From Oligoflexales bacterium (GTDB taxonomy: Bacteria; Bdellovibrionota_B; Oligoflexia; Oligoflexales; Bog-1112), in contig JBGCDR010000155.1 in the NCBI GenBank assembly GCA_045105515.1, positions 1 to 22,786 of the forward strand: DNA of 22,786 bases, written 5' to 3'. A program made the position numbers and the translations under genes. Each line of letters opens with the position of its first letter. Position 1 is the first letter of the stretch. This document shows positions 1-22,786 of this stretch, piece after piece. The notes under the pieces are model-generated. The model did no database searches, was not told the origin of the DNA, and saw only the letters and a program-made list of their open reading frames with translations.

Positions 1-62
1 GAAAAACTATATGATTGAATTTTGGATGATAAACCGACGAATTAGAATATAAAGGAGATCGC

Positions 63-281: not shown

Positions 282-536
282 TATTTTTCGGGCTAATTTC
301 TCTATTACATTTAAAGCACATAAAGTTTCCATAAAACTTGGATTGTGAGGACCATAGCTGTATCTATTGCTTATCGTGGGAATTTAAGAATTGAATTTGG
401 CCAGTTTAATCGCTATACTCGGCATCCATATTTTTAATACAGTGATTTAAGTGATCGATCGCACTGATGTTAACCCAGGGGAGGACGTTAATTTAACCCA
501 CTTAACTCTAGCTATGGGAACGCAGTGACCATTCCT

Positions 537-3723: not shown

Positions 3724-3812
3724 AAACTCCCTCATGGGCTAACCATCTGCGATACCTTAAATCTACTTGAATAATTTAGAATAGTGAAGACGGGTCATTT
3801 CTGACCGCTTAC
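3093..3812 (+). mobile_element. IS66-family element, 5'-truncated remnant with intact right inverted repeat
   Basis: 3' part of tnpC followed by a terminus ending ...GGGTCATTTCTGACCGCTTAC (reverse complement starts GTAAGC, the IS66 signature). Confidence 0.88.
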
Positions 3813-5777: not shown

Positions 5778-5805
5778 ATCCCGCCAACATAGTATCTATC
5801 CTTAA

Positions 5806-6708
5806 TCAAATTATCCATTTTGGCCTTTTAAGAACCTTAAGAGAACCATTATGAAATAAAAATAATGCTGGATAAAGAAACCATAAGTGAAAAAAAGGTA
5901 CATTCATGGAGGAGTGTATCACACAATGAAAAGCCAATGAGATTAGACCTAAACGAACCGAACCACTAAATAAAGACAAAGCAAGTATAAATCCCAGCTC
6001 AAATATGCCCGTAGAAATACCCATAATTCTAGCTATTAATGGCTGTATTGCAAGTTCAAGCCCTAAATTTGAATTAGACTGTTGTGCTGTCAATGCCATA
6101 AATGAAAAAATAGATTCTCCTTCTGTGAACCATTTTAATCCTCCTTTTATTAGTTTTGAATATCCAGCATTCCAATATATCAACGCAACAAAAAACTGTA
6201 CAAAAGAGATATAAATTGAAGCTCTTTCCCTTTCCTTTGTCGATTTTAAGGAAGTATCACGACGAAAAAATAGTCTATCGATTGAATAATATTCACCTGA
6301 TCTTGTGAAATTTAGTGCTACTAAGAAAAAATTTATATGAGTGTTATAATTCCAAACTGTTGAAAAATGAGCAATATATCCATTAAATATAAAGAATGAA
6401 ATGGTTAGAGTTAAGACCGCTATTCGAGAAAATAAACCTAGCAAACAGAATATCGCACTGATGAAAACGAGTGATTTTAAAAAATAGTAACTATTGAAAT
6501 CTAGGGCAGGTATCGCTGAGATAATCCCTTTCGGAACGTACAATATCGGCGCAGCGTCGACATAAAATTCGTTGTAAGGAGCGAAGTGAAGTAAAACTAC
6601 AACAATAAGTCCTAAAGTCACTCGAATTAATGCTGCCCGTTCGAGAGAATTGATTTGTCGGAATAAAAAATCAAAGATGCAAGAGAATATCCAATAATAT
6701 ATCTTCAT
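5806..6708 (-). CDS. HTTM-domain (SdpB / vitamin K-dependent carboxylase N-terminal-like) membrane protein
   Basis: Multiple TM segments with LLGLFSR, YSIDRL, IYWNAGYSKL..GGLKW, FELGF and FHCVI, characteristic of HTTM proteins. Confidence 0.75.
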   Translation of the reverse strand: MKIYYWIFSCIFDFLFRQINSLERAALIRVTLGLIVVVLLHFAPYNEFYVDAAPILYVPKGIISAIPALDFNSYYFLKSLVFISAIFCLLGLFSRIAVLTLTISFFIFNGYIAHFSTVWNYNTHINFFLVALNFTRSGEYYSIDRLFFRRDTSLKSTKERERASIYISFVQFFVALIYWNAGYSKLIKGGLKWFTEGESIFSFMALTAQQSNSNLGLELAIQPLIARIMGISTGIFELGFILALSLFSGSVRLGLISLAFHCVIHSSMNVPFFHLWFLYPALFLFHNGSLKVLKRPKWII

Positions 6709-7218
6709 TCATCTATTCTCTTCTCGAAAAGAATATCCTTTGATTGTTTCCACTACCGATATTTTTTCTTTGACTAAATAGTCAGTCAAATCGTATTTAA
6801 TATAGCTAAAATCAAATCCAATAAATTCTTTCCTGTTAGGAGAAATCGCAGTCCGATAGAAACCTTGGAAAGGGCTCCAAGGGCTATTTACATGTTTCAG
6901 TACCAATTTCGCTAATTGCTGCTTCTGATTTTCATCCTTACCATACCCGTAAACTTTATTAAATATTGCATTCGCAACAAAAAACTCCACGGGTAATGCG
7001 TTGCCAGGCAACACCACCAAACTTTCCCCAGTACTATCGATCAATGTAAGTTTGTAATAGATCCCACTAATACCTACTGGTTTGGCAAACATATCATAAG
7101 GGGAGAAGGGCCAACCCAATTTATATTCATCACATAGTTGCATTGTTTGGACTAGGCCAAATACTAAAAAACTTACACCAATCATGGCTCTGGTCACTGT
7201 CCACTTTCTCTCTTTCAT
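6709..7218 (-). CDS. Hypothetical membrane-anchored protein, HTTM partner (SdpA-like arrangement)
   Basis: N-terminal TM segment followed by WPFSPYDMFA. Its stop abuts the HTTM start (TGA ATG), and the RBS GAGGGA lies upstream. Confidence 0.65.
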   Translation of the reverse strand: MKERKWTVTRAMIGVSFLVFGLVQTMQLCDEYKLGWPFSPYDMFAKPVGISGIYYKLTLIDSTGESLVVLPGNALPVEFFVANAIFNKVYGYGKDENQKQQLAKLVLKHVNSPWSPFQGFYRTAISPNRKEFIGFDFSYIKYDLTDYLVKEKISVVETIKGYSFREENR

Positions 7219-7512
7219 GGTCCCTCTAGTCTTCTAAAAAATATTTTCAGTACTTCCACCCATCTAACTGATGGGAATGATTTAAAATACTCAATTGTAT
7301 TTTGTGCTTAAAGGTCGAATGTTCCAAAATTTAGGTGGAGCTATCATACAAGAGTTCTAATGACAATTGCTATATCCAAACCTATTTATATTGTGCTAAT
7401 TTTCCAGGACCCTTTTTCTCTCAGTGCCAAACTCGGGTATTTGAATTTATCGTAAATATATCATTATCATAACTTAAACAAAACCGTGACACTTTGAAAA
7501 TGAATCGAATTG

Positions 7513-7665
7513 TATAATATTTTATTGTTCGACGCAAGGGCGTTATCAAAAATATGAAGATACCTTATCGTTAATGGGGTTTGTCAAGTAAAACGAGAAT
7601 TTGATAATCATCAGATGTAACAGCGATTTTTAGGAAGCTCTTGCGTCGAACAATAAAATATCATA
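7513..7665. repeat. 29-bp inverted repeat pair (22-bp perfect core) separated by 95 bp, in a divergent intergenic region
   Basis: ATATTTTATTGTTCGACGCAAG (7517-7538) is the exact reverse complement of 7640-7661. It extends to 7513-7541 / 7637-7665 with 2 mismatches. Confidence 0.95.
7581..7608 (+). promoter_or_regulatory. Possible sigma70 promoter inside the inverted-repeat spacer
   Basis: TTGTCA-N16-GATAAT pointing toward mltB and the operon. Motif match only. Confidence 0.3.
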
Positions 7666-7727
7666 AAGTCCTACAACTTTTGAAAATATAAGCCTTAGAA
7701 CCACATTAAAAAAGGATTAGGCAGAAC

Positions 7728-8645
7728 ATGTTTTTGATCCCCAAATATAGTAAATTAGTCATTGTTACTATCATATTGATTTTTAGTCATTTTGTTTATG
7801 CGATGTCTGCTAATAACGATAAATTGGAATTATTGAAAATTACTCCTGAAGTTCGTGAATTTATCAGAACTATGGTCATAGAAAATGTAGGCAGTGAAGA
7901 CTTTCTCAGATCTACTCTTAGTCAAGCTAGGGTGGACCAAAGAATAATAACTATGATGGATAAGGCTTTTCCTCAAATACCTTACCCCGAATACAGAAGA
8001 AAATTTTTAAATCCTCAGTTGATTGAAAACGGATTTTTATTTTATAAGAAACATTCAAAACTTCTTGAACATTCCTATAACCAGTATGGTGTTGATCCCT
8101 TTATTGTTGTTGCGATAATGGGCATCGAATCAAATTACGGGGATAATCAGGGGCAACATGGTGCACTAAATAGTTTGGCTACTCTAGCGTTTCATTATCC
8201 GCGACGTTCTAAGTTTTTCAAAAATGAACTGAAAGCTTTTTTAGCTCTTTGCAGTGAAAATAATTTAGATCCTTTCATTGTAAAATCATCATTTGCTGGT
8301 GCATTAGGGGCACCTCAATTTATGCCTTCTAGCTACTTAGGATACGCCCGAACCTTCGAAACTAGAAAAAACGCAGATCTGTTTTTAAATCGAGGAGATG
8401 GTATAGCTAGTATTTCGAATTATTTATCCACTTTTGGCTGGGCAGAAAAAGATATGCGGTTTGGAAATAAAAAATCCATCGGAAATCAGAAAATAAAATA
8501 TGAAAAAGTGTGTATATCTGATACTGAACATAACTTACAAAAAAATAACTATAGAGTGTTGCTCCGGTATAACAATAGTCACAACTATGTAAAGGTTGTT
8601 TTTGAATTAGCAAGAAAAGTTGCGAGTCTTGCAGATAAAAAATGA
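7728..8645 (+). CDS. mltB: Lytic murein transglycosylase B (SLT_2 / family 3)
   Basis: Signal peptide-like N-terminus; YGVDPFIVVAIMGIESNYG (catalytic Glu), YPRRSKFFKNEL, SSFAGALGAPQFMPSSY, YNNSHNY. Confidence 0.93.
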   Translation: MFLIPKYSKLVIVTIILIFSHFVYAMSANNDKLELLKITPEVREFIRTMVIENVGSEDFLRSTLSQARVDQRIITMMDKAFPQIPYPEYRRKFLNPQLIENGFLFYKKHSKLLEHSYNQYGVDPFIVVAIMGIESNYGDNQGQHGALNSLATLAFHYPRRSKFFKNELKAFLALCSENNLDPFIVKSSFAGALGAPQFMPSSYLGYARTFETRKNADLFLNRGDGIASISNYLSTFGWAEKDMRFGNKKSIGNQKIKYEKVCISDTEHNLQKNNYRVLLRYNNSHNYVKVVFELARKVASLADKK

Positions 8646-8674
8646 TTTTATGTGATGTATAAAAGGGAATAGAT

Positions 8675-8935
8675 ATGGAAAGACTGCCATCAAAAATAAG
8701 ATATATGAAACCTTTATACTGGGGAGCTGGTGTTTGGATTTTAGCTTTTGCGGCGGATCAACTCAGCATCCACTCTATCGACAGTTTCAGTATAGGTCCT
8801 TTTTATGAAAAAGATGATTGCTTAGATGTGCTAAAAAAAATAGAAAAATTGAAAGAAAAAAGTTTATATGTAAAATACTCAACCAATGGGAAAATCAATT
8901 GGGGCCAAGGTAAACATTGGGACCTTAAAATATAA
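8675..8935 (+). CDS. Small hypothetical protein (86 aa)
   Basis: ORF with an AAAGGGA RBS that fills the gap between mltB and the next gene, with a short hydrophobic stretch. No family recognised. Confidence 0.45.
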   Translation: MERLPSKIRYMKPLYWGAGVWILAFAADQLSIHSIDSFSIGPFYEKDDCLDVLKKIEKLKEKSLYVKYSTNGKINWGQGKHWDLKI

Positions 8936-8951
8936 CTTAGAGAGATATTAT

Positions 8952-9959
8952 ATGAAAAATATTCCAAAAACATGGGAATGCGGCGCAGATCATTTTCAAT
9001 CAGTATTAACCAATGAATGGTATAAAGTAGTTTCTAGTTTGTTTTCAGAGGTAACTTGTACAACGATAGACTTTTTTAGAAAGGAAGGTCTTAGTCCGGT
9101 GTTACTACCTATTACTTGTCCTTCAATTTCGAGTCCTATGGGGCTCGGTAGTGACAGTTTACCTGTTGAAATTGAGTTGCATAATGAAAAAATCTATTTA
9201 GCGGATTCTATGCAATTTCATTTGGAATATCTTTTAAGGATTCAATCCCAAGGGGTATTCTACATTATGCCTACATTCAGGGGAGAAGATCCAGATGCAA
9301 CCCATTTGAATCAGTTTTTTCATGCAGAGGCTGAAATCCAGGGTGGATTCTTTGATGTTATGCAACTAGTTAATAAATACGTATTACAATTAACTAAAAA
9401 TATTAACTCGAAGCTTTCATGTGATCTAAATAAGGTAGGAATCAACACTGAACATTTAGATTTATTTATTAATTTGAATGGAAAAGTACCTGTTGTTGCG
9501 TTTGAAGATGTTTTTAATGACTTCAAAGACTCTGAATATATTGAATATATTAACTCTGATACTCCGATCATTACGAGAAAAGGTGAGCTTAAATTAATTG
9601 AAATTTTTAAAGGCCCAGTTTGGTTAAGTCATCCAAGGCACAACTCTGTACCATTCTACCAAGGTTGGAGTGAAGATAGAAAATCTGCTTTATCAGCCGA
9701 CCTTCTCCTAGGTTTAGGTGAAGTAGTTGGATGTGGAGAGCGTCACACTAGCTATCAAGATACTTATGAATCTTTAAAATCACATGGAGTTAACCATGAA
9801 GAATATGATTGGTACTTACGCTTAAAGAGAGAGTTTCCTTTGAAAACAGCTGGATTTGGTCTCGGAATAGAAAGGTTTCTCGCTTGGGTTTTAAAACATA
9901 ATGATATTCGAGACCTGGCGCTTTTCAACCGTTTAAAGGGAATTAAGTCAGCACCATAA
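8952..9959 (+). CDS. AsnRS/AspRS catalytic-domain paralog lacking the anticodon-binding domain (archaeal AsnA / AsnRS2-like ligase)
   Basis: YLADSMQFHLE, motif 2 FRGEDPDATHLNQFFHAEAE, ADLL..LGEVVGCGER, YDWY, motif 3 TAGFGLGIERFLAW. No N-terminal OB-fold. The ATG at 8952 is preferred over 8886. Confidence 0.88.
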   Translation: MKNIPKTWECGADHFQSVLTNEWYKVVSSLFSEVTCTTIDFFRKEGLSPVLLPITCPSISSPMGLGSDSLPVEIELHNEKIYLADSMQFHLEYLLRIQSQGVFYIMPTFRGEDPDATHLNQFFHAEAEIQGGFFDVMQLVNKYVLQLTKNINSKLSCDLNKVGINTEHLDLFINLNGKVPVVAFEDVFNDFKDSEYIEYINSDTPIITRKGELKLIEIFKGPVWLSHPRHNSVPFYQGWSEDRKSALSADLLLGLGEVVGCGERHTSYQDTYESLKSHGVNHEEYDWYLRLKREFPLKTAGFGLGIERFLAWVLKHNDIRDLALFNRLKGIKSAP

Positions 9960-9993
9960 TTTTTCTGAAAAAAACTCATAAATGGAGAACTAA

Positions 9994-10995
9994 ATGAATT
10001 CTGTATATGTACCACAATTAACTAAAAATGATATTGTTCATGTTGTTGCACCATCTAGGAGCATGTCAATAATTTCAAAGCAAGTACAAGATACAGCGAC
10101 GCAAAGATTAAATTCTTTCGGTCTTAATGTTTCTTTTGGAAAATATATTAATAATTCAAATAATTTTTGTACAACCACGGTCGAAGAAAGAGTAGAAGAT
10201 CTTCATTCTGCTTTTCTTGATCCAAATATTAAAGGCGTATTTTCTGTTATAGGTGGATTTTATAGTAACCATTTATTGGACTATATCGATTTTGATATAT
10301 TGAAATCAAATCCTAAAGTATTCTGTGGTTATTCAGATATCACAATCCTAGTAAATGCTATTTACAGAAAATGCGGATATATAACTTACTATGGACCTCA
10401 CTATTCAACATTAGGTATGGTTCAAGGTATCGATTATACTTTGAATAGCTTGAAAGATACTCTCTTTAGTTTTTCAGATAACGGTCTGACAATTGAGCCA
10501 TCCAGGAAATGGAGCGATGATCTTTGGTTTTTAGATCAAGATAAACGAGTGTTTATTGAAAATAGTGGACCAGTTGTTTTGAATAAAGGTATTGCAAAAG
10601 GACGTGCGATAGGAGGTAATCTTTTTGCTTTTGATTCGTTGAGAGGGACAGAATATATGCCAGATCTTGAAGATTCTATTCTATTTCTCGAATGTGATGA
10701 TACTCATGGGGACCTCACTCCTGCTCTATTTGATAAAATTATTTACTCAATTTTGCAGCATAAGGGTGCTAAAGGTATCAAAGGAATAGTCCTTGGTCGT
10801 TTTCAGAATTCCTGTAAATTTGATGAGTTAACACTATGTGACATTCTAAAAGCGAAAAATATGTTATCAGGCATCCCAATTGTTTATAATATGAGTTTTG
10901 GTCATACTACACCACAGTTCACTATTCCTATTGGTGCTGATACGATTTTAGATACTCAAGACTCTGAAAATGTTTGCTTACAATTCAAAAGGTAA
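9994..10995 (+). CDS. S66 family peptidase (LD-carboxypeptidase / MccF-like)
   Basis: VAPSRS, IGGFYSN, GYSDIT (Ser), GGNL, LFLE (Glu), FGHTTP (His). No signal peptide. Confidence 0.93.
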   Translation: MNSVYVPQLTKNDIVHVVAPSRSMSIISKQVQDTATQRLNSFGLNVSFGKYINNSNNFCTTTVEERVEDLHSAFLDPNIKGVFSVIGGFYSNHLLDYIDFDILKSNPKVFCGYSDITILVNAIYRKCGYITYYGPHYSTLGMVQGIDYTLNSLKDTLFSFSDNGLTIEPSRKWSDDLWFLDQDKRVFIENSGPVVLNKGIAKGRAIGGNLFAFDSLRGTEYMPDLEDSILFLECDDTHGDLTPALFDKIIYSILQHKGAKGIKGIVLGRFQNSCKFDELTLCDILKAKNMLSGIPIVYNMSFGHTTPQFTIPIGADTILDTQDSENVCLQFKR

Positions 10996-11001
10996 TTTTA
11001 T

Positions 11002-12294
11002 ATGTTAAGTCTTGAAAAAATTAAGGATATTTGTTTAAAAAGAGGATTTTTTTATAAACAAAATTGCGGTTCTTTAGAAGGGATTTACGAGTTAGGTCCC
11101 CTAGGTGTTATTTTAAAAAATAATATTATTTCCTCATGGAAACATAGTCTGCTTTCAAGAGACTATGAGATATACTCAATGGAAACTAGTAATCTGACTC
11201 CTCTTAAAGTTTGGGAAGTATCTCAGCATACAAAAAATTTTCATGACCCCGTAACTACCTGTACTCGTTGTAGCTTATCTTTCAGAACAGACAAATGTGA
11301 ACATGACCTAAAAGATAGTAAAGTAATTTATTACTGTCCAAAATGTGGCAATGAGAGTCATTCTATTGTTTCAAAATCATCTTTGCTGTTTGAAACAAAT
11401 GTTAACTTGAATGCAAAAAAAGAAAGTAAATTTATTTTACGGCCTGAAGGCTCACAACTAGTATATTTGCAGTACAAAAATTTAATAGATTCTATGAATG
11501 CTAAAATTCCTTTCGGAGTGTCTCATATAGGCCGATCTTTTCGAAACGAGACATTCGATGCGAACTCTTTTATTTTTCGTTCACTGGAATTTGACCAGTT
11601 AGATGTTCAATTTTTTGTTTCTGAATCCGAGGCCATAAAATATTTGGATATATGGACCAACAGACGGTTAGAATGGTATAAAAAGCTTTCCAATAATCCT
11701 GCAAACTATATAGCGAAGACTATTCCTCAGGATGATAGGAGCCATTATTCAAGCCAAACCAACGACATTTTATTTAATTTCCCATGGGGTAAAGATGAAA
11801 TTGAAGGAGTTGCTTGCAGAAATGATCTCCTAGGACTAAAAAATTTTTTCCCTCATGCTTTTGAGGGGGTTCGACAAGAAGACTTACCTTTTGTCATCGA
11901 GCCAAGTGCTGGATTGCAGCGAATGATATTATCCTTTCTTTTTGATGCTGCGGTAGAAAGTGAGTCAACCAACCAAGTCAATCTGAATATTCATCATGAT
12001 TTAGTCCCATATCATGTTTCTATAAACATCAACGGGAGCATGCCTCTTGTAAATTTATGGGAAGATTTGCATCAAAAAAACAAGAATATTCGAATCAATA
12101 AAACTTGTGAGTCTGAAAACAAAATATTTGAACTAATAAATAATCAAATTGGGACATTGTGGACGATTAGTAAAGATATGTCTGGATATGGGTATATTCT
12201 AAAGCACAGAGACAAAGATCTGCATCATTTTGACACATTAGAGTCATTGTCTAATCGATTAGCACTAGATTTTGAAAAATTACAGGATATATAA
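11002..12294 (+). CDS. Divergent glycyl-tRNA synthetase (alpha2 type) paralog with a degenerate anticodon-binding domain
   Basis: CLKRGF, YELGPLG, CxxC...CxxC, LRPEGSQ, IGRSFRNE, FIFRSLEFDQLD, FPWGKDEIEG, PFVIEPSAGLQR. The C-terminal domain lacks [15 protein letters not shown]. Confidence 0.88.
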   Translation: MLSLEKIKDICLKRGFFYKQNCGSLEGIYELGPLGVILKNNIISSWKHSLLSRDYEIYSMETSNLTPLKVWEVSQHTKNFHDPVTTCTRCSLSFRTDKCEHDLKDSKVIYYCPKCGNESHSIVSKSSLLFETNVNLNAKKESKFILRPEGSQLVYLQYKNLIDSMNAKIPFGVSHIGRSFRNETFDANSFIFRSLEFDQLDVQFFVSESEAIKYLDIWTNRRLEWYKKLSNNPANYIAKTIPQDDRSHYSSQTNDILFNFPWGKDEIEGVACRNDLLGLKNFFPHAFEGVRQEDLPFVIEPSAGLQRMILSFLFDAAVESESTNQVNLNIHHDLVPYHVSININGSMPLVNLWEDLHQKNKNIRINKTCESENKIFELINNQIGTLWTISKDMSGYGYILKHRDKDLHHFDTLESLSNRLALDFEKLQDI

Positions 12295-12298
12295 AGAT

Positions 12299-13582
12299 AT
12301 GAATACAAAAAAACCAGATAAAAAAGAGTTTATTAAGAACATTCTTTTCTGTAAGTGGGATCATGTTTTTCTAAAAACAGCTCTTGAAAGTAATCATGTA
12401 TGCCATTTGGTTCTCGACAAATATGATGCAAAAAGTCATGATTTCAATAAGGAGTTAGCTGATAAGTGTGCATCGTTTATTACAGTTAGTTCTTTCGATT
12501 CTATTGAAGAACTTTCAGCGGTAGCTGGGCATTTTATATCTTCGGAGATAAAAATTGATTTCGTTGTAAGCAATGGAGAGTATGGCCATTATGGAGCTGG
12601 TTTACTGGGATCTATTTTTGAGGTTCCAAATATTAATATTCATTCTGTAACCTCTGTCAGAGATAAGATATTGATGAAGAAAATGGCTGTTGATGGGGGG
12701 TTGCGTGCAGCATCTTATACCTCCATACCAGATATATCTGATATCTCAAACTTTAAAAGTAAATTGAGACATTTATCTTATCCTCTTGTACTAAAGCCTT
12801 CTAATGGTGTGGGTACAAGGTATACTTATATACTTAAAAATGACCAGGACTTAAAAGTCGCAGCTGAAGAAATAAGTAGTAACCTATGTCCTCCCCTTTA
12901 TTCTAGAAGTTTTATCATCGAAGAATTCATACCTGGTGAGGAATATAATATCGATGCCGTTTGGTTAAATGGTAAACCTGTTCTTTTTTCGATCGCAAAA
13001 TATTTTTCTCCGGTAATTCAGTACAAGAATAGCACTGTAGGATTGAGAATTTTAAACAAAGAAGATCATGAAGAACTCTATGAAGAATTATATAGCATGA
13101 ATATAAAAGCTAATAAAATTTTCAATATAAGAAATGGTTTAACACATATGCAAGTCTTAAAAGAACCTGGTAAGCCAGCTGTTTTTACAGAGATTGCCAC
13201 TCGTCATTGCGGAGGGTATGGTTGTGAAGCGATTGAGAAAAAGTGGGGTATAGATAATCGAGAAGCTTTTATTAGAATTCTACTTGGATGTGAGAAATCG
13301 GACTTGGCATTTAATGAAACACCTCATAAACACGTAGGATATTTTAACGTATCTCCGGAAAATCCTGGTGTAGTCGTCAATTCGCCTAATCCTGAAGAAA
13401 TAAAAAAGTTCAATGGAGTATTAGAAGTAAAACAGTGTCTTTTCGATGGAGAAGATTATGCGAATGACTATGGATGCAATTGGACGATGCTGGTACTTGT
13501 TGGAACGGAATCGATTGATAAGTTCCATGAAATTGTCAACACCGTGAACGAAAAATTTAAATATCAAACGGTTGGTAACTGA
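12299..13582 (+). CDS. ATP-grasp ligase (L-amino acid ligase-like), copy 1
   Basis: RDKILMK, YPLVLKPSNGVGT, FIIEEFIPGEE, HMQV, TEIATRHCGG. The ATG at 12299 is preferred. Confidence 0.9.
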   Translation: MNTKKPDKKEFIKNILFCKWDHVFLKTALESNHVCHLVLDKYDAKSHDFNKELADKCASFITVSSFDSIEELSAVAGHFISSEIKIDFVVSNGEYGHYGAGLLGSIFEVPNINIHSVTSVRDKILMKKMAVDGGLRAASYTSIPDISDISNFKSKLRHLSYPLVLKPSNGVGTRYTYILKNDQDLKVAAEEISSNLCPPLYSRSFIIEEFIPGEEYNIDAVWLNGKPVLFSIAKYFSPVIQYKNSTVGLRILNKEDHEELYEELYSMNIKANKIFNIRNGLTHMQVLKEPGKPAVFTEIATRHCGGYGCEAIEKKWGIDNREAFIRILLGCEKSDLAFNETPHKHVGYFNVSPENPGVVVNSPNPEEIKKFNGVLEVKQCLFDGEDYANDYGCNWTMLVLVGTESIDKFHEIVNTVNEKFKYQTVGN

Positions 13583-13583
13583 C

Positions 13584-14858
13584 GTGAATATTTTATTTTG
13601 TAAATGGGATAAGTCTTATCTAGAACTAATGCTAGCTCAAGGATTAAAAGTGTGGCAAGTATTAGATGATTTTGACAAGAATCTTAACAATCTTGATGCT
13701 GATTTGCTTGCTAAGTGTGAAAATATATTCTATGTCAGATCTTTTGACTCGATTGAGGAGATCGCTTCCATTGCCTCTTCACTAATTTCTGAAAATGTGA
13801 AAATTGAACATGTTGTTAGTAATGGTGAATATTCTATTTACGGATCAGCAGTTTTAAAGTCGATTCTTGGGCTTGAAGGTAATGCTGTGTTGAAAGGGCT
13901 ATGCTACCGTGATAAAAGAGCGATGAAACAGAAACTAAGAAAAAATCAGATTAGAACTGCCCGTTATGTATCCGTTTCAAATATTCATGATATTCATGAT
14001 CTATATGATAAAGCCCTCCAGATTGGTTTCCCAGTGGTTGTAAAACCGGCAAATGGGGTTGGAACACGGCTAACAGCTGTACTAAGGAATGCTAATGAAC
14101 TTAATGAATTCCACCAAAGGGTAATTGCTGAAATTAAACCTCCCATTTTTTCGTCACAATTTATTGTCGAAGAATATATTAAAGGTCAAGAATTCCATGT
14201 AGACGGGGTCTGGGCAGAGGGAAGAAATATTTGTTTTTCAGCAGGCAGGTACCATGCTCCATGCGTAGAGTTTAAGGAAAAGTTTTATGGATCTATGTTG
14301 CTAGATGAAAAGAATGATGAACACTGTCTTAAGGAACTTTTTGAGTTAAATAAGAATGTTAATCGTGCCCTTGGTATTTGTGATGGGCCTACTCATCTCG
14401 AAGTCTTTCTAGATTGTAACGGTGAATTTGTTGTATCGGAGATGGCAACAAGAATTGGTGGTGGGTTTATTATGGAAGCTAATCTGGAAAAAGATAATAC
14501 CTGTTTCAGATCCAATCATGTTAAAGTTCTGGTGAATCCAAGGAACTTTTCAAAATCTGAGCCACCACCTTCCCAATTGAAGGTGAGGTATTTCGGTTTT
14601 ATTAACTTGACACCAAAAGAAGAAGGCGTAATTACATCTATACCAAGCATCGATTCTTTAAAGAGTCATCCCGGAATTCTTCGTTTCCAGTTGCGTGCGA
14701 ATATTGGCGACTCTTTTAAGCACAGTCATGGTGGGAATTGGATACTTATGGTAGTTATCGCAGCACCTTCTGAAGAAGAATATCAGATGCTATGTAAAGA
14801 GATCATTGAAAAATTTATAATTCAAACGGTCCCTTTTATTTCTAAGGTAACTAATTAA
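13584..14858 (+). CDS. ATP-grasp ligase (L-amino acid ligase-like), copy 2
   Basis: [53 protein letters not shown]. The start is either GTG 13584 or TTG 13572. Confidence 0.9.
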
Positions 14859-14875
14859 TTTTAACATTTTATGAC

Positions 14876-16186
14876 ATGAGAAACCCTATGTTAGACAAGA
14901 TGAAAATGATTACGGCACTCTGTAAAAAACGTGGATTCGTATTTCAAAGCTCTGAAATTTATGGTGGCCTCTCAGGTGCTTGGGATTATGGGCCTTTGGG
15001 ATCTGAACTTAAGGCTAATATTAAAAAATTGTGGTGGGAGCACATGACCTACCGGCAAGATATTGTAGGAATAGATTCGGCAATTTTAATGAACCCAGAG
15101 GTCTGGAATACTTCTGGTCATGTCAAAAATTTTAGCGATCCTATGGTTGATTGCAAAATTTGTAAGCATCGCTTTAGAGCTGATACGATCGACTTAAACG
15201 CTCCTTGTCCAAATTGCCAATCTGAAAATAGCTTTACTGAGCCGCGTGATTTCAATCTACTATTTGAAACCTCTTTAGGATCAGTAAAAGATCACCAAAG
15301 TAAAGTTTATCTTCGACCTGAAACTGCTCAAGGAATTTTTGTAAATTTTATTAATGTACAGAAATCAACCCGAAAAAAAATTCCTTTTGGAATAGCTCAA
15401 ATAGGAAAATCCTTTCGAAACGAGATAACTCTTGAAAATTTTATCTTTCGAACTCGCGAATTTGAACAAATGGAAATGCAATATTTTGTTGAACCAGGCT
15501 CTCAATCAGCCCATATAGCCCAATGGAAAGAAGTAAGGATAAACTGGCTAAAAAGTTTGGGTTTTAATCAAGATAATTTGCGTTTTGTCGACCACGACAA
15601 GCTAGCGCACTATGCAGATGAAGCAGTAGATATTGAATATAATTTCCCAAAATTTGGTTGGAGTGAACTTGAAGGAATACATTCTCGAACAGATTTTGAC
15701 ATTAAGGGTCATATGGATGCTTCAGGCAAGAACTTACAGTATGTAGATCCTATTAATGGAAAGAAGTTCTGCCCATATGTGGTAGAAACTGCCATAGGGT
15801 GTGACAGGTTGTTTTTAGCTTTGTTATGTGAGGCTTTAGTAACAGATTCCGAAGATGATGATTTAGATAGGGCTTTATTGAAGCTAGATCCAAAAATTGC
15901 ACCTATAAAAGCAGCTATTTTACCCCTGCAAAATAAACCTGCTATCACTGAATTAGCTATAAAAACTTTTGATGATCTCAGAAAAAGGTTTAAAACAGAT
16001 TATGACACCTCTGGATCTATAGGTAAAAGGTATCGTAGGCAAGATGAAATAGGAACTCCTTATTGTGTGACTTTTGATTTCGATACTATAGAAGATAAAA
16101 AAGTTACGGTAAGGAATAGAGACACTGCTCAGCAATCTCGCGTCGAATTGTCTCATCTACAAAAGTATCTAGAGGATAGGATCTAA
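14876..16186 (+). CDS. glyQS: Glycine--tRNA ligase (alpha2 dimeric type), intact
   Basis: [95 protein letters not shown]. Confidence 0.96.
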
Positions 16187-16192
16187 CTTTCA

Positions 16193-17434
16193 ATGAAAAG
16201 TCAGGAAAAAATTTTTATTCTGTTGCTTCTTCAAGCGTTAGCATTGACAGGGTCCTCTTTGACAGGCTTTGCTCTTCCGTTATTGCTTTTTAAAGGTTCT
16301 GATCAGATTTCTGGCCTTGGATTACTATATTTTTTTCAAATATGGCCTGGCTTTTTAGTTAGCTTTCTAGCAGGATATATTACAGACCGATTCTCAAGGA
16401 GATGGGTGTCAATTATTTCATTGATAGCATATCTTTTGAATTTAGCCTGTCTTGGATTCTTTCATCATTTTAATAGTTTGGATAGATTAATCATCTATTT
16501 TTTTACTATAAATCTTTCCATAATTAATGCTTTTCAAGCATTATCTCTCTGTACCCTTATAAGTGAAAATGTGCGAAATGAAACTAGAGTTCTCGTTAAT
16601 ATTTTACTATCTCTCCGTAACACTGTCCCACGGCTATTGGCTCCAGCATTGTCCGGATTTCTAGTAGCACAAAATGAGATCAGTACAATTGTAGAAATTG
16701 ATTTCATAATTCATATCTTGTTTCTTTTTGTAGTTTTTGTTCTGTCTCATAATTTTAATAGTAGTAAAGATAATCAAATAAAATTGTTAGATTATAAAAA
16801 AGTGCTTTCGTTTATTGGTAAACAAAAAACTATGCAAAAGACTTTATTAAGTCTTTTGCATACTAATGCTACCACTTCAGTTTTTGGAGTTTTTATTATT
16901 CCTATTGCACTGAATTTTATGAACGAACACCAAATAGGTTTTAATTTGTCTATGGGTGGGATTGGGAGTGTTGTGGGAGCTTGCTGTTTTCAACGAAACT
17001 TTTTCAAACTTAATTTGAACCATATTTTGTTTTTTAGTCATTTAATTCAAGGTTTTTCTTTATTTTTTTTGGTAATTTTTTCATTTTATGATTACTTTGG
17101 CTTATTTTTATTTTTCTACTTTTTTACAGTTCCTATTCAAAATGGGCATAGCTATAGTGTTTGGCAAGAAAGTACCAATCCTTCGCTTTATGGACGCTTA
17201 TTTGCGTCTAAGGGAATGATTCTTCAAGCTAGTAGTATTATAGTTTTTTTTCTTATAGGCTACATTGGAGATTGGATTCTAATTCCAACTACAAGTAGAA
17301 TCCTTTCCCCAGATAAAGGTTATCTTGGGTTGTGTTTCTTTATATCGGCCTTAGGAATTACACATATTATTGCAGCATCTAGAATTTTTCTCCGCTCACG
17401 GCTAATATCAGAGTTTCAATATGAAAAGGTATAA
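16193..17434 (+). CDS. MFS transporter (DHA3/MefA-like exporter)
   Basis: About 12 hydrophobic segments, motif A GYITDRFSRR, and WQESTNPSLYGRLFA. Confidence 0.9.
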   Translation: MKSQEKIFILLLLQALALTGSSLTGFALPLLLFKGSDQISGLGLLYFFQIWPGFLVSFLAGYITDRFSRRWVSIISLIAYLLNLACLGFFHHFNSLDRLIIYFFTINLSIINAFQALSLCTLISENVRNETRVLVNILLSLRNTVPRLLAPALSGFLVAQNEISTIVEIDFIIHILFLFVVFVLSHNFNSSKDNQIKLLDYKKVLSFIGKQKTMQKTLLSLLHTNATTSVFGVFIIPIALNFMNEHQIGFNLSMGGIGSVVGACCFQRNFFKLNLNHILFFSHLIQGFSLFFLVIFSFYDYFGLFLFFYFFTVPIQNGHSYSVWQESTNPSLYGRLFASKGMILQASSIIVFFLIGYIGDWILIPTTSRILSPDKGYLGLCFFISALGITHIIAASRIFLRSRLISEFQYEKV

Positions 17435-18392
17435 AAATTTTTCGTTGGACCTAGGTCGATGGAATCATTCAACACTAGAAAATTTGATGGAACATTGTCA
17501 AGTTAACAAAAAAACTGCAAATGAGCGGATTGCATTTTGGATGGAGGAATTGATATCTATTCCTTTCGCCTTCGAATCGCAAAGAATGTGGCCCGAAAAA
17601 GGTCACATTCGTGTGGATTTAGAAACAATGGACTGTATGACTCTAGTATATTATGTTTTAGCCCTTTCTCGAAGTAGAGATATTAATGAATTTTTATCGC
17701 AGATTTGTTCTTTTCGTTATCATGGAGATGGATTAATAGATAGTGACCCAGAGAAGGGAAATATATTTAATTTTGCTTCTGAAGCATTTCTGAAAAATGC
17801 TATATCTAGGAAAATATTTATTGATTTAACTAGTGATTTAGTACCTAAAAAATATTTAGGTATTTTCTCAGCAAATCTAAAAAAAATTAGGCGCGCAAAG
17901 CTAATAGATATAAACCAGAATTTTATTAGCCCCATAACACAAGGTCGAGTTAGAAGTGAATTTATCGTAAAAGATGGATTTCCATACGTTTTTAAAGACA
18001 AAATTAAATCTGGGGATCTAATTTTATTTGGTAAGAAAAATAAAAATGATGACGAAGAACTTCCGATGCTGATAGCTCATCTAGGTTTTGTATATAGACC
18101 CCACGATGAAACTAATGGAAAAATAGGTTTGTATCACTCCACTAGGCATTTCCATTGGAATCCAAACGGAAATATTGACTCTCGACCACGTTTTACAGGT
18201 TTTTTTTATGATACAGAAAGAAAAAAAGAGCAAATAGGAACAGGTGTTGCAGGTGTTTTTGCTGGTGAGCATACTAAAACCATTGTAAATCCCAATTCAA
18301 CATGTTATGGGATGAATCAGGATGAAATAAGATCTATATTTGACTACGCCTCTTTTTCATTTGATGGTTTTAAGATTTTAAGACCTTTATAA
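17421..18392 (+). CDS. DUF1460 / NlpC-P60-like cysteine hydrolase (AmiA-like amidase fold), no signal peptide
   Basis: LETMDCMTLVYYVLALSRS (Cys), FRY, IKSGDLI, IAHLGF (His), LYHST, GFKILRP. Confidence 0.78.
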   Translation: MKRYKNFSLDLGRWNHSTLENLMEHCQVNKKTANERIAFWMEELISIPFAFESQRMWPEKGHIRVDLETMDCMTLVYYVLALSRSRDINEFLSQICSFRYHGDGLIDSDPEKGNIFNFASEAFLKNAISRKIFIDLTSDLVPKKYLGIFSANLKKIRRAKLIDINQNFISPITQGRVRSEFIVKDGFPYVFKDKIKSGDLILFGKKNKNDDEELPMLIAHLGFVYRPHDETNGKIGLYHSTRHFHWNPNGNIDSRPRFTGFFYDTERKKEQIGTGVAGVFAGEHTKTIVNPNSTCYGMNQDEIRSIFDYASFSFDGFKILRPL

Positions 18393-18457
18393 CCCTATAA
18401 AAAATAAAGATATTTGTTAATTAAAAAATAAATTTAAAATAGACATGGAAACACAAA

Positions 18458-19747
18458 ATGTTAAAATCATTGGATCTAGTAGCATCTGAAAACAAACAAA
18501 GCCCGTTGGTTCGAGCACTTCATTTAAGTAGTTACGGTGAAAAATATTATTTAAGCAACGAAATATTTGAAGATAAAAAAGACAGTCCTTATCCTGTAGA
18601 TGAATTTTTTCCCAAATTATTAATTGCAGGAAATAAATTGATTGCAGGCTTATTTAATGCCAATTGGTGTGATCCTCGACCATTATCGGGTACACACGCC
18701 ATGAACTGCTTATTGGCGGGTTTTGGGGACTTTGGTGATAATATTACAATAACTCCGGAGGTTAATAGTGGACATTTTGCTACTAGCTATATGGCTACTC
18801 GTCTAGGATTAAATAGTTCTTTTTCTTTGTATGACAAAGAAAAATATACTATTGATCCAATAAAGACAGCAGAGGTGATCAATACAAATAAGCCTTCGAT
18901 TGTAACATTAGATGCTAGCCATGTTTTATTTCCTCATCCATTAAAAGAGTTAAAGTCATATTTGAACTATAATCCTCTTATTGCATATGATGCCAGTCAC
19001 ACCATGGGCTTAATAGTGCATAAGATTTTTCAAGATCCATTTGAAGATGGTGCAGATATTATTCATGGAGGAACTCATAAGACATTTCCTGGTCCTCAAA
19101 AAGCAATATTCCTTGGAAAAAATGAAGAAATTCGTCAAAGAGTAGACGGTGTAATTTTTCCTAGATTTAGTTCTAATTTTCATTTACACCACATTATCAG
19201 CCTTTATGGTGCGGCATTGGAAGCTTTAGTATTTGGTAAATCATATGCAAACCAAGTTATCAAAAATGCTCAACATTTAGGTAAATGTATGCATGAAGCA
19301 GGACTTCCTGTAATGGCTGAGGATCATGGATTCACCAAATCTCATCAATTATGGTTAAATATTTCTGCTGATAAAGTTCCTCTACTAAATGAAATGGGAA
19401 TTCGAGCAACTGTTTTTGTCATTCCTGGAACTGATGGGCAACAAAAGGGGATTCGTCTCGGAACTCAAGCCATAACTAGGATGGGCTTCCAAGAGAAGGA
19501 TATGCAGGCCGTTGCAGGTTTTATTAAACAAGGTTTGATGGATAACAAGAACAGTAAACTTCTAAGGAATGAGGTTAGTGATTTTGTTAAAAAATTTGAA
19601 GGTATCTCTTTTGCTTTCAAAGATATTAAAGCAATTGTAGACGCCCATCCAGTTGGGGGTTTGTTGGCAGAGCATATGGAAGAAGGTGGATTAGACAAAA
19701 TATTTCAACACTTGGTCTGTGCTCCAACATTTTCAAACCAAAATTAA
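18458..19747 (+). CDS. SHMT-fold PLP enzyme, L-threonine transaldolase-like (LipK/ObiH/AbmH type)
   Basis: LDLVASEN, RPLSGTHAM, YDASHTMGL, GGTHKTFPGPQKA (canonical SHMT has TTTHKTLRGPRGG), TKSHQLW, GIRLGTQAITRMG. Confidence 0.85.
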   Translation: MLKSLDLVASENKQSPLVRALHLSSYGEKYYLSNEIFEDKKDSPYPVDEFFPKLLIAGNKLIAGLFNANWCDPRPLSGTHAMNCLLAGFGDFGDNITITPEVNSGHFATSYMATRLGLNSSFSLYDKEKYTIDPIKTAEVINTNKPSIVTLDASHVLFPHPLKELKSYLNYNPLIAYDASHTMGLIVHKIFQDPFEDGADIIHGGTHKTFPGPQKAIFLGKNEEIRQRVDGVIFPRFSSNFHLHHIISLYGAALEALVFGKSYANQVIKNAQHLGKCMHEAGLPVMAEDHGFTKSHQLWLNISADKVPLLNEMGIRATVFVIPGTDGQQKGIRLGTQAITRMGFQEKDMQAVAGFIKQGLMDNKNSKLLRNEVSDFVKKFEGISFAFKDIKAIVDAHPVGGLLAEHMEEGGLDKIFQHLVCAPTFSNQN

Positions 19748-20055
19748 TGGCGGTTAGTAGCTTTTTGTAAACGAGTTATTGAAATCTTTTTTGATACAAC
19801 CCAGTTTTGCCGGTAAACTTAAGCATAATGGCCCAGGTTATATAAGGCTCTAATTATATGCATTAAATGTTGCTATTACAGCTCTGATCACTTCCTGACC
19901 ATTGCTGTCCATTTTGTCCTTTTTGTCTATATAAAAGTTTGGAACAAGAAGCCACGAAAACGAGCAGAAATTTATATCGACTTCGAAAATTTTTAAGCCA
20001 CAATCCTCTTAAATTCATAAAAATACACTAGTGTTACGTAAAATAGAAAATCACC

Positions 20056-20184
20056 TTATAATAGACCTTTAAAATAAGTATCCTTTTCCTTTTTGCTTAG
20101 TCCATTAAAATCCTCAGAAACACCTGGAGGTAAGCACCTCCAAATCATGGATGGTGAGTTCCTATTTCGGTAGGTCTCCTGTGA
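20056..20184 (-). pseudogene. Possible 3' remnant of a gene cut by IS66
   Basis: A 42-codon frame (SQETYRNRNSPSMIWRCLPPGVSEDFNGLSKKEKDTYFKGLL*) stays open right up to the IS66-like end at 20185. Confidence 0.3.
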
Positions 20185-20202
20185 GTAAGCGCTTGTTCAT
20201 GA
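20185..20202 (+). repeat. 18-bp remnant of a second IS66 inverted repeat, in tandem with the IS66 left IR
   Basis: GTAAGCGCTTGTTCATGA is immediately followed by GTAAGCGCTCGTTTATGACCGT. Confidence 0.8.
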
Positions 20203-20287
20203 GTAAGCGCTCGTTTATGACCGTGTTTTAATCGTCAAAAAAAGCATTTATAACCGTATTGTTGTGTTTCATTTGAAAGGGTTATAA

Positions 20288-20635
20288 ATGGCTAAGAAGA
20301 AAAGTTTAAGTCGAGATATCTGGGAGATGCATATTTGGAAGTGGAGCAATAGTTCCCTCTCGATTACTAATTACTGCACGGAAAACTCTCTGTCGCGGCA
20401 GTCATTTTATAAGTGGAAAGGAATTTTCCACGATAAGACCCCAGAGAAAAGGGTGATTGAGCATCCTAAGAAGGAGGAATTTATTCCTGTAGAAGTTGCC
20501 CCCTCCAAAACTTTATCAAATAGCGGTCAAATTAAATTAAGCTTTACGTCAAATGACGGTCAGATATTCAGCCTAGAATCTTCGGACATGAATATGATGA
20601 TGAAATTATGCCAATTTCTCCAGGGTGCAAGATGA
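20288..20635 (+). CDS. tnpA: IS66 accessory protein TnpA
   Basis: W..HI..W..SSLSITNYC...LS..SFYKWK and FIPVEV; first ORF of the IS66. Confidence 0.9.
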   Translation: MAKKKSLSRDIWEMHIWKWSNSSLSITNYCTENSLSRQSFYKWKGIFHDKTPEKRVIEHPKKEEFIPVEVAPSKTLSNSGQIKLSFTSNDGQIFSLESSDMNMMMKLCQFLQGAR

Positions 20636-20982
20636 GATCCGTAGAAAGTTTTGAAAAGATATTTCTATATCCTAAGGCCGTTGATATGAGGAAACAAATA
20701 AATGGCTTGGCTCATATAGTGGAGTCGTCAGCTCTCAAACTTTTCAGCCCTAGCTTGTTTCTTTTTTCCAACCGTCACAGGAAGCTTGTTAAAGCCCTTT
20801 ACTGGGCTGACACCGGATTTTGTCTTTGGATGATGAAACTGGAAGAAAATCGTTTTCCTTGGCCCAAAAGCTCAGATAAACACCTTATTCTTTCTCCCGA
20901 GCAATTTAATTGGCTTATAAAAGGCGTGGATTTTAGCAAAATTAAGCCGCATCAAACCTTGCAATATGAGCGTTTTTCATAG
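20632..20982 (+). CDS. tnpB: IS66 accessory protein TnpB
   Basis: VDMRKQINGL, LFLFSNR, KALYWADTGFCLWMMKLE, FPWP. ATGA overlap with tnpA. Confidence 0.93.
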   Translation: MRSVESFEKIFLYPKAVDMRKQINGLAHIVESSALKLFSPSLFLFSNRHRKLVKALYWADTGFCLWMMKLEENRFPWPKSSDKHLILSPEQFNWLIKGVDFSKIKPHQTLQYERFS

Positions 20983-21016
20983 ATGAAACAGCGATTATTT
21001 TGTATACTTTTTTCTT

Positions 21017-22555
21017 ATGAAAACGAGAGAAAGCCTTCCAGAAAACCAAATAAATCCTCCTAACGAGCTAGTTAATTCACTAAAAAATCAGCTGGTTTGC
21101 AAACAAGAAACTATTGATCGTATGTCCACGCAGATCAAGAATCTTCATGCAGTTATTGATGGATTTAAGAGAGAAAAATTTGCGCCGAAATCTGAGGCTA
21201 TTCACCCAGGGCAGGGAACCTTGTTCAACGAGCCCGAGGTTCTGGTCACCGATAAGAAAAGTCATGAAGAACTTTCCCCAGTAAAGGGCTATAAAAAAAG
21301 AAAAGCCAGAAAAAAGACTTTATCCGATACGATTCCTCGAGAACAAAAAATCATAGACCTCACTCCGGACCAAAAAATCTGTTCTTGTGGCTGTGAGATG
21401 AAAAAAATTGGTGAGGATGTTAGCGAGAAAGTTGAGTATATTCCTCAAAAAGTAAAAGTCATTCAAAATATTCGCCCCAAATATTCCTGTCCTAAATGCA
21501 AGGAAAAAATAGTCCAAGAGCCAGCTCCAAAGGCTATTATTCAAAAGTCTTTTGCATCAGAATCATTGCTTGCTGCTATTATCACAGCAAAATACTGTGA
21601 TGGTCTCCCTCTATATAGGCAAGAGAGCATTTGGAAAAGAGCTGGGATCGAGCTTAAAAGAGCACGAATGGCTCACTGGATGATAAAAACCGCAAAAGAG
21701 CTAATGCCTCTATATAACCTTATTAAGGAGCACACTTTTTCATGGAATGTCGTGCATATCGATGAAACAGTCGTTCAAGTTTTAAAGGAAGAAGGAAGAT
21801 CTGCTGCAAGCAAGTCTTATGCTTGGATTGCTGCAAGAGCTGATGAAAAACCTTCGGTATATTTTGAGTATCATCCTAGTAGAAGCGGTAAAATAGCAGC
21901 TGAAATCCTCGATGCTTACTCGGGTTACGTGCTAACAGATGGCTACCGTGCCTATGATGTTGCCATGGCTGACCGCTATAAGAAGCATTGTGGCTGTTGG
22001 GACCATTGTAGGCGTGAGTTTTTTAAAGCATACGAAGCGGCAAAAAAAGATCCCAGTTCGCTGGCAGCCTACGCTCTCCATTACATAAGAATTCTATACC
22101 TAATTGAAAGAAGGGAGAAAGAGTCAAGCTCTTCACGAAGAAAAATTGCTCGCTCTCTTTATTCCAAGGCAGTCCTAGACCGACTTAAAAGTTGGATGCT
22201 CAGGAATATTGATAAGGTTCCCAAAACGTCAAATACGGGAAAAGCCCTTCATTACATGTATGGTCAGTGGGATAAGTTGACCCGCTTTCTTGAAAGTGGG
22301 GATGTTCCAATCTCCAATGAAAGAGCTGAAAATTCGATAAGACCTTTTGTAATTGGTAGGAAAGCATGGTTATTTTCAGATACTGTAGATGGTGCTGATG
22401 CTTCTATGTGCTTATACACTATTGTTGAGACAGCTAAAGCAAATGGTCACGAGCCATTTCACTACTACACTCGTATCCTAACAAAGATTCCTTACTGCAA
22501 AACCATTGAAGACTATGAAGCACTTCTTCCTTGGAACCTCAATCCAGAAAATTAA
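21017..22555 (+). CDS. tnpC: IS66 transposase TnpC
   Basis: Leucine-zipper region, Zn finger (CSCG...CPKC), KYCDGLPLYRQ, HIDET, TDGY, CWDHCRREF, SNERAENSIRPFVIGRKAWLFS. Confidence 0.96.
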   Translation: MKTRESLPENQINPPNELVNSLKNQLVCKQETIDRMSTQIKNLHAVIDGFKREKFAPKSEAIHPGQGTLFNEPEVLVTDKKSHEELSPVKGYKKRKARKKTLSDTIPREQKIIDLTPDQKICSCGCEMKKIGEDVSEKVEYIPQKVKVIQNIRPKYSCPKCKEKIVQEPAPKAIIQKSFASESLLAAIITAKYCDGLPLYRQESIWKRAGIELKRARMAHWMIKTAKELMPLYNLIKEHTFSWNVVHIDETVVQVLKEEGRSAASKSYAWIAARADEKPSVYFEYHPSRSGKIAAEILDAYSGYVLTDGYRAYDVAMADRYKKHCGCWDHCRREFFKAYEAAKKDPSSLAAYALHYIRILYLIERREKESSSSRRKIARSLYSKAVLDRLKSWMLRNIDKVPKTSNTGKALHYMYGQWDKLTRFLESGDVPISNERAENSIRPFVIGRKAWLFSDTVDGADASMCLYTIVETAKANGHEPFHYYTRILTKIPYCKTIEDYEALLPWNLNPEN

Positions 22556-22786
22556 TCATAGATAAAAAATCAAGCTAAATATGAATCGCGCAGTATTGCC
22601 TCGGGACGGTCAAAAACGAGCGCTTACCTTAATCTAGCAATCCGCCTTGCCTAAAACTTAATTTTCAACTAGGCAAAGATTAAAACCACCTAAGTCAGAA
22701 TATATAACTCAAACTTAAATTTGGATAATTACAATCTTTCATTAAATGACTAAAGCGTTCAAAAATAAGCGACTTATTACGGAATA

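Follow-up and report, generated by a model that had tools for sequence, protein, structure and literature searches.

Why does a complete glycyl-tRNA synthetase (GlyRS) gene stand in the middle of an operon that otherwise carries biosynthetic and export genes? The gene (14876-16186, + strand) lies on a contig of 22,786 nucleotides (nt), C155, here called the window, which was binned into a metagenome-assembled genome (MAG) of an Oligoflexales bacterium. The first-pass annotation of the window had proposed a self-resistance copy of the target of the operon product, with an atypical motif-2 loop as a possible resistance substitution. We found that the best explanation of this GlyRS is a cluster-borne spare enzyme for self-protection, with or without a supply role, a reading to which we assign a probability of about 0.5. 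The duplication, the cluster location and a foreign phylogeny support the original proposal, whereas the argument from the loop did not hold up.

To establish what the gene encodes, we compared its product with curated models, structures and conserved positions of the family. The reading frame is single and uninterrupted over 436 codons and, as first annotated, lies intact between the ATP-grasp genes and the exporter gene, 18 nt past the second ATP-grasp gene and 7 nt ahead of the gene for a major facilitator superfamily (MFS) transporter. The start is ambiguous: in-frame ATGs lie at 14876, at 14888 and further downstream, and a clear ribosome-binding site is not visible. Against the NCBIfam model NF003211 (glycine--tRNA ligase), the protein scored 613.5 bits (cut-off 312), and against TIGR00389 498.7 bits (cut-off 243.3). 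Pfam placed a class II core (tRNA-synt_2b) and an HGTP_anticodon domain in it, the latter (PF03129) at residues 345-434 with an E-value of 4.3e-20. The AlphaFold2 (AF2) model had a predicted local distance difference test (pLDDT) score of 88.7 as a whole and of 94-98 in the C-terminal alpha/beta domain. A position was taken as conserved family-wide if at least 93% of a set of 150 diverse GlyRS representatives share its residue; all 45 such positions, including the class II motif 2 and motif 3 residues, are kept, and the conservation comparison showed that all tRNA-domain signature residues are retained as well. The PDB matches were mycobacterial GlyRSs (8u2q, 8sld and 8t5n; E-values 3e-137 to 2e-134). 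By these measures the gene appears to encode a functional class IIa dimeric (alpha2-type) GlyRS. In domain order and in all conserved residues it resembles housekeeping alpha2 GlyRSs, such as those of Bacteriovoracia, the mycobacterial enzymes just named and the Thermus enzyme (1ati, 1b76); it differs from them in its motif-2 loop (TLEN, not TPGN), in 26 clade-specific changes and in its non-housekeeping setting.

The number of GlyRS genes in the genome bears directly on the self-protection reading. The assembly comprises 6.29 Mb in 461 contigs, with 90.86% completeness and 4.83% estimated contamination. A search of this genome, which the first-pass annotation had suggested, revealed one further GlyRS, a 504-amino-acid (aa) open reading frame (ORF) with two insertions on contig C433, so that the window copy is indeed an extra one. 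The two proteins are 44% identical by tblastn and 50% identical in a MAFFT alignment. A GlyQ-type alpha subunit (PF02091) gave 0 matches in the genome, compared with matches in 7 of 14 control genomes. In a phylum-level set of 131 genomes, this genome alone gave four GlyRS matches and each of the others at most two; since these two are the halves of one long gene, the other 130 genomes do not exceed one GlyRS gene's worth each. Housekeeping GlyRSs of the host order are long forms of about 500-550 aa with two insertions.

We then placed both copies in a tree of 67 rows. In it, the 118 top hits were represented by every third sequence and the 59 hits of a GlyRS-derived paralog described below by every fourth; the loci of nine relatives and three proteins of the window genome completed the set, and no row was removed once chosen. 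The C433 enzyme fell among the GlyRSs of its own order, and its identity to the enzyme of a same-genus genome is 95%. The window GlyRS instead formed a clade (support 100) with a metagenomic protein, P0003 (75-76% identity), and this clade was sister to 40 short Bacteriovoracia-type GlyRSs (support 99). P0003, which is encoded on a 4.4-kb contig, is the sole close relative of the window GlyRS and likewise keeps all 45 of the family-wide conserved positions. Measured from the common node, the path to the window GlyRS was the longest of 42 tips (0.73; sister-clade median 0.47, range 0.38-0.69), which amounts to no more than a mild speed-up. The window copy is thus foreign to the host lineage and, given correct binning of contig C155, a horizontally acquired second copy.

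The loop gave a different result. The motif-2 strand-loop-strand spans residues 180-192 (15413-15451, + strand), and translation confirmed the loop as first read, with the core ITLEN and Leu186-Glu187 at 15431-15436; Bacteriovoracia and mycobacterial GlyRSs carry TPGN in place of TLEN. In the nearest-homolog set (the 118 best, excluding the query itself and P0003), the loop was FRNEITPGNFIFR in 110 proteins, a minor variant in 5 and missed by the pattern in 3, and Pro and Gly each made up 98% of their columns (116/118). The proposal that bacterial alpha2 enzymes usually carry Pro-Gly or Pro-Arg at this point therefore describes the nearest relatives well. It does not extend to a wider set, the 150 best 50%-identity representatives from 12,701 hits at E <= 0.001, in which the column held Pro in only 107 of 150; the 43 Pro-less sequences had Ala (12), Val (11), Thr (10), Leu (5), Ser (3), Ile (1) or Arg (1). 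Glu occupied the following position in 9 of the 150, and 8 combined it with a Pro-less position in a hydrophobic-Glu arrangement; among these are ITLEH and IRLEH, from proteins about 600 aa long. The exact ITLEN loop, by contrast, was rare, confined to the query and P0003.

Further comparison with the host's own enzymes removed the loop as a mark of resistance. The loop of the C433 housekeeping GlyRS reads FRNEIIVEHFIFR, and I(I/V)(V/T)EH is what all 8 GlyRS loci fetched from other genomes of the host order show; in a single, more distant genome the loop is ITPRN. Because Pro-less and Glu-bearing loops occur in ordinary GlyRSs, the host's own included, the Leu-Glu loop is not evidence of resistance, and we consider it improbable that the Leu-Glu pair itself confers it. 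In the AF2 model, residues 184-191 are the sole long low-confidence stretch of the catalytic domain (pLDDT below 50) and sit between strands 171-181 and 195-205; they correspond to the flexible motif-2 loop. The motif-2 loop of class II synthetases lines the ATP site. It has also been tied to reading of the tRNA acceptor end and discriminator base in a review of tRNA identity (PMC9976931). As an adaptation to an odd tRNA the loop was ruled out, all three tRNA-Gly genes of the genome having the bacterial U73 and a G1-C72 stem. The third of these, a tRNA-Gly(UCC) at C286:630-700, is built differently: it is 71 nt long, has another D-arm and carries no encoded CCA. It is located at the end of the 12-kb chunk whose composition is the most atypical in the genome.

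Counting the two loop residues, there are 26 sites at which the window GlyRS departs from what at least 90% of the 118 nearest homologs share. Several adjoin the catalytic motifs: A79T (beside the conserved G81-H82), M129L, A179S (just before F180-R181 of motif 2), P186L, G187E, L276I, and S306A with V307I (between E304 and G308). These clade-specific changes are suggestive of active-site remodelling; in a lineage that shares only about 60% identity with its sisters they do not decide the matter.

The setting of the GlyRS gene is a row of ten + strand genes (8886-19747) with gaps or overlaps of -23 to +66 nt. From the gene families present, we infer a small biosynthetic cluster free of nonribosomal peptide synthetases (NRPSs). 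The row opens with an AsnA-like ligase (8886-9959, + strand), an AsnRS/AspRS catalytic core without an anticodon domain (Pfam tRNA-synt_2, 4.3e-34). With 246.7 and 227.1 bits it fell short of the cut-offs of the NCBIfam models for asparagine synthetase A, its PDB matches were AsnRS (1x54) and archaeal AsnA (1nnh, 3p8t), and its true start is possibly downstream of 8886. Two ATP-grasp ligases of the L-amino-acid-ligase type, 33% identical to each other, precede the GlyRS gene. The first (12272-13582, + strand) matched ATP-grasp_4 at 1.4e-14; the second (13572-14858, + strand) matched ATP-grasp_4 at 2.7e-15 and LAL_C2 at 9.2e-6. The second had only 9 matches at E <= 0.001 in a large protein database, the best outside match being a Kitasatospora protein at 32% identity. 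At the end of the row lies a divergent, ObiH/SHMT-like pyridoxal phosphate enzyme of the SHMT fold (18458-19747, + strand), whose PDB matches were archaeal SHMT (4bhd, 4uqv; 8e-52), equally closely a 'threonine aldolase' (7k34; 2.8e-50) and, at 9e-24 or weaker, bacterial SHMTs. It is only 23% identical to the genome's own glyA on contig C82, and it could make a beta-hydroxy amino acid instead of glycine.

Three further genes of the row bear on the nature of the product. A serine peptidase of family S66 (9994-10995, + strand) falls on the MccF-like branch: it matched the MccF-like protein BA_5613 (4e5s) at 3e-90, MccF at 2e-35 to 5e-31 and true LD-carboxypeptidases at 3e-17 or weaker. The MFS transporter (16193-17434, + strand; Pfam MFS_1, MFS_3) is exporter-like, of the EntS/DHA3 type; it matched TIGR00900 and an EntS model, both under the cut-offs, and gave no AmpG match. 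An AmiA-like, amidase-like protein (17421-18392, + strand; PF07313, 3.5e-9) gave no PDB sequence match. Upstream, an MltB-like lytic transglycosylase (7728-8645, + strand; SLT_2, 1.1e-63) stands at the head of the gene row, with uncertain membership of the operon. Its SLT_2 match spans profile positions 4-204 of 292; an internal part seems to be missing and a family-like C-terminal tail is kept. An ORF of 86 aa with one hydrophobic stretch (8675-8935, + strand) overlaps the listed start of the AsnA-like ORF, had no Pfam or NCBIfam family match and is perhaps not a gene.

With three wall-hydrolase-like families in one row (MltB-like, S66 and AmiA-like), the operon might be thought to remodel or recycle peptidoglycan, with the ATP-grasp enzymes taking part and the GlyRS supplying glycine for the wall peptide. 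ATP-grasp ligases can add residues to stem peptides. We regard such a role as quite unlikely: the S66 protein matches MccF-type proteins (3e-90 and about 1e-35) far better than it does true LD-carboxypeptidases (about 1e-16), the transporter matches exporter families and not AmpG, the Pfam scan of the window ORFs contained no Fem-type transferase, and nothing like the operon occurs in the other 130 genomes of the phylum-level set.

On tRNA-dependent chemistry, the first-pass annotation had reported that no Fem or CDPS-type enzyme was visible in the window. This was correct for Fem-type transferases; it overlooked a 430-aa GlyRS-derived paralog (11002-12294, + strand). The paralog scored 252.6 bits against NF003211, under the cut-off of 312, and had no Pfam match to the anticodon domain. 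It is 31-35% identical to real GlyRSs, and no homolog above 37% identity was found among 5.8 billion proteins; its branch of 9.8 changes per site makes its placement in the tree unreliable. At 35 of the 45 conserved positions it keeps the family residue, among them the conserved glutamates and the arginines of motifs 2 and 3. The adenylation residues kept are R147, E149, R181, E183, R193, E196, R273, E300, G304 and R307 in its own numbering. The residues lost, in window-GlyRS numbering, are G31, D37, G81, T150, Q175, E200, D275, G383, R413 and R415, of which the last three belong to the C-terminal domain; where the window GlyRS has R413 and R415, the paralog has His408 and Phe410. Its model (pLDDT 74.2) matched GlyRS structures over 435-472 columns with a two-domain fold, although it was built on an alignment of true GlyRSs and may be biased by it.

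These residues matter for the idea that the GlyRS is a supplier only, making Gly-tRNA(Gly) for a tRNA-dependent glycyl transfer by the paralog, either as an AcmF/SbzA-type look-alike or by VlmL-type supply, while the product does not target GlyRS at all. A precedent exists in ascamycin biosynthesis of Streptomyces sp. 80H647, where AcmD makes Ala-tRNA and resists the product better than canonical AlaRS (PMC12945691); according to the same source, synthetase look-alikes perform the tRNA-dependent step in the biosynthesis of ascamycin (AcmF) and SB-203208 (SbzA). Here, too, a full extra synthetase, a look-alike of the same specificity and a hydrolase are encoded together, the GlyRS retains its tRNA-domain signatures, and the paralog model is still a two-domain GlyRS fold. 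The loci differ in that the synthetase here is a GlyRS and there an AlaRS, that no nucleoside-sulfamate genes were seen here, and that the host is an uncultured Oligoflexales-type bacterium and not an actinomycete. The look-alikes themselves also differ. AcmF has lost the residues for ATP and amino-acid activation, whereas the paralog keeps them, its ten losses lying elsewhere, three of them in the C-terminal domain. Because the adenylation residues are kept and the anticodon-domain signatures lost, an ATP-driven, tRNA-independent ligase fits better than an AcmF-type enzyme, and the paralog probably joins glycine or a similar small amino acid in this way. Moreover, the host already has a GlyRS for Gly-tRNA, and the presence of the exporter and of the MccF-like peptidase points to a toxic product. 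A purely supplying GlyRS is therefore unlikely in our view, though less so than the cell-wall role.

Self-protection, by contrast, draws on features known from other clusters. Resistance-type target copies have three genomic marks, namely duplication, co-location with biosynthetic and export genes, and an incongruent phylogeny, and all three are present here. The self-protection reading rests on these marks together with the MFS transporter and the MccF-branch peptidase, which echo the immunity set of microcin C. As described in PMC8323819, the LeuRS encoded by agnB2 (agrocin 84) is about 1000-fold less sensitive, abmK encodes a SerRS in the albomycin cluster, asnS occurs in actinobacterial mcc-like clusters, and MccF serves as microcin C immunity. 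Tiarin clusters contain cluster-borne synthetases that are always duplicated and are read as immunity genes, according to bioRxiv 10.64898/2025.12.02.691738. Like these Trojan-horse systems, the window has a second synthetase of the same specificity in a cluster beside an export pump, with the housekeeping copy elsewhere. It differs from them in its unrelated biosynthetic enzymes, in that resistance here is putative, and in that no MccB, siderophore part or precursor of a modified ribosomal peptide (RiPP) was seen; the Pfam scan of 21 window ORFs gave no MccB (ThiF-like) family, and short precursor (MccA) ORFs were not searched for. The S66 protein lies on the MccF/MccF-like side and accompanies an MFS pump as mccF stands beside mccC. 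Its closest solved relatives are uncharacterised 'MccF-like' proteins (4e5s, 5usd and 4h1h), and the mccB family that belongs to the microcin C system is missing here.

How the parts would work together can be outlined. The operon would co-transcribe the GlyRS with four ATP-dependent amide-forming ligases, namely the AsnA-like, the GlyRS-derived and the two ATP-grasp enzymes. The product presumably inhibits GlyRS, and the window copy would be less sensitive to it; once the operon is on, a GlyRS uninhibited by the product would keep tRNA-Gly charged. Export and hydrolytic detoxification would act alongside the spare enzyme. The window GlyRS might also feed the glycine step of the neighbouring GlyRS-derived ligase, as AcmD does for AcmF. 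Among Rfam matches at E <= 0.1, a group II intron was the sole one, with no T-box or glycine riboswitch, and promoter-like sites (69, compared with 59.7 +/- 8.0 expected) and terminator-like sites (6, compared with 8.2 +/- 3.2) were not above the shuffled expectation.

The operon is bounded by mobile elements on both sides. The left flank (537-5691) contains an ATPase of the IstB/IS21 type, ORFs for Mu-type and rve transposases, part of an IS66 transposase and a group II intron (RF02005 at 3847-4114, 87.8 bits) with a reverse transcriptase ORF (4273-5691). The intron directly follows the 219-aa IS66 fragment (3064-3723) and looks lodged in or beside a broken IS66. Two adjacent proteins encoded at 5806-7218 (- strand), a 300-aa multi-pass membrane protein and a 169-aa protein, had no Pfam or NCBIfam match. 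On the right lies a complete IS66 with TnpA, TnpB and transposase genes (20288-22555, + strand; Pfam, NCBIfam), at a read depth of 21-24, 57-66 and 64-73 in three sequencing runs, compared with 12, 35 and 40 for the operon, or about twofold. The last 140 nt of the contig reach about four to nine times that depth, and the right IS66 (20142-22786) is a multi-copy element that ends the contig. The operon has a GC content of 34.1% (genome 38.4 +/- 1.6%, contigs over 10 kb), and its tetranucleotide distance to the mean of the genome falls on the 99th percentile. Taken together, the operon is rare, mobile and imported. Per-run assemblies from three runs of one study recovered it on single contigs with zero mismatches (2800-20310, 2800-20232 and 7188-20265), which indicates that the gene order is no assembly chimera; these runs are possibly the source of the window itself and so show contiguity and not independent occurrence.

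Such surroundings also fit a redundant GlyRS captured by a mobile island as a passenger, unrelated to the product, with its loop a result of neutral drift in a little-sampled lineage. The insertion sequence (IS) elements on both sides and the frequency of Pro-less loops in ordinary GlyRSs are consistent with this. Yet only 18 and 7 nt separate the gene from its biosynthetic and export neighbours, and it has kept every conserved residue, while an unused copy of an essential enzyme would be expected to decay or to sit at the edge of an island. We accordingly give the passenger explanation little credence.

We likewise considered a binning artefact, in which contig C155 comes from another organism in the sample and the GlyRS could be the sole copy there. 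The contig carries mobile and island genes only, the other 94 genomes of the order offer no ortholog of the flanking membrane protein of 300 aa beyond a single weak match at 25% identity, the operon composition is atypical for the genome, and the nearest GlyRS relatives are of the Bacteriovoracia type. On the other side, the left flank (1-7700) has typical tetranucleotides for the genome (34th percentile), the rve transposase is 74% identical to one on contig C64, and the IS66 end matches contig C262 at 98.6% over 146 nt. A sole housekeeping GlyRS in an IS-bounded operon beside a degenerate paralog would moreover be odd in any genome. An artefact of this kind thus seems improbable, about as much so as the passenger.

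Several observations nevertheless weigh against a spare GlyRS for self-protection. None of the genes of the 22.8-kb contig links it to the lineage, so the claim of a second copy rests on metagenomic binning in a MAG with the contamination estimate given above. The Leu-Glu loop is derived in a small clade and resembles the normal state of working GlyRSs, including that of the host. P0003 could belong to the ordinary housekeeping genes of a lineage not yet sampled, given that the database contained no homolog of the second ATP-grasp ligase of at least 235 aa near that level of identity. No nucleoside-building genes were seen, which makes an adenylate-mimicking product only one option.

In addition, we found no related cluster that would show the GlyRS travelling with the pathway, the paralog and the second ATP-grasp ligase being without close relatives among 5.8 billion proteins and the searches of plasmids and of 80 ATP-grasp loci being negative. 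Among 72,556 plasmids, tblastn with the paralog returned ordinary GlyRS genes only (19 records, all below 60% identity), and with the second ATP-grasp ligase distant ATP-grasp genes only (210 records, all below 60%). A scan of genome contigs with the Kitasatospora ATP-grasp protein (P0184) returned 80 loci, none of which (0/80) had any other cluster gene, and the phylum-level search of 131 genomes with the paralog found the operon in its own genome only. The listings from full-text literature searches on GlyRS with biosynthetic gene clusters or self-resistance showed no report of a cluster-borne GlyRS. In the accessible parts of the sources, GlyRS was named only in classification in PMC7916415 and was absent from PMC8323819 and the tiarin preprint (bioRxiv 10.64898/2025.12.02.691738); in none of the three did it figure as a natural-product target. 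Cluster-borne synthetase copies are already known as a kind; the present one lies in an orphan, NRPS-free operon.

Going further, the operon might make the first natural GlyRS inhibitor, a glycine-derived or glycyl-adenylate-mimicking small peptide assembled without an NRPS by two synthetase-derived and two ATP-grasp ligases, with the imported GlyRS, through its remodelled loop and other clade-specific changes beside the catalytic motifs, as the insensitive target. We put this forward tentatively, as a doubtful extension. If the resistance reading fails, the locus would still caution that what looks like a 'lost conserved residue' in the loop of a synthetase can be the normal state of another lineage. 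Cluster-borne extra synthetases have repeatedly pointed to both the targets and the existence of new antibiotics, as for agrocin 84, albomycin, ascamycin and the tiarins. If self-protection is the correct explanation, the locus would be a compact, cloneable 12-kb lead to a new inhibitor class and would provide a second example, after AcmD and AcmF, in which a synthetase and its look-alike act as a pair.

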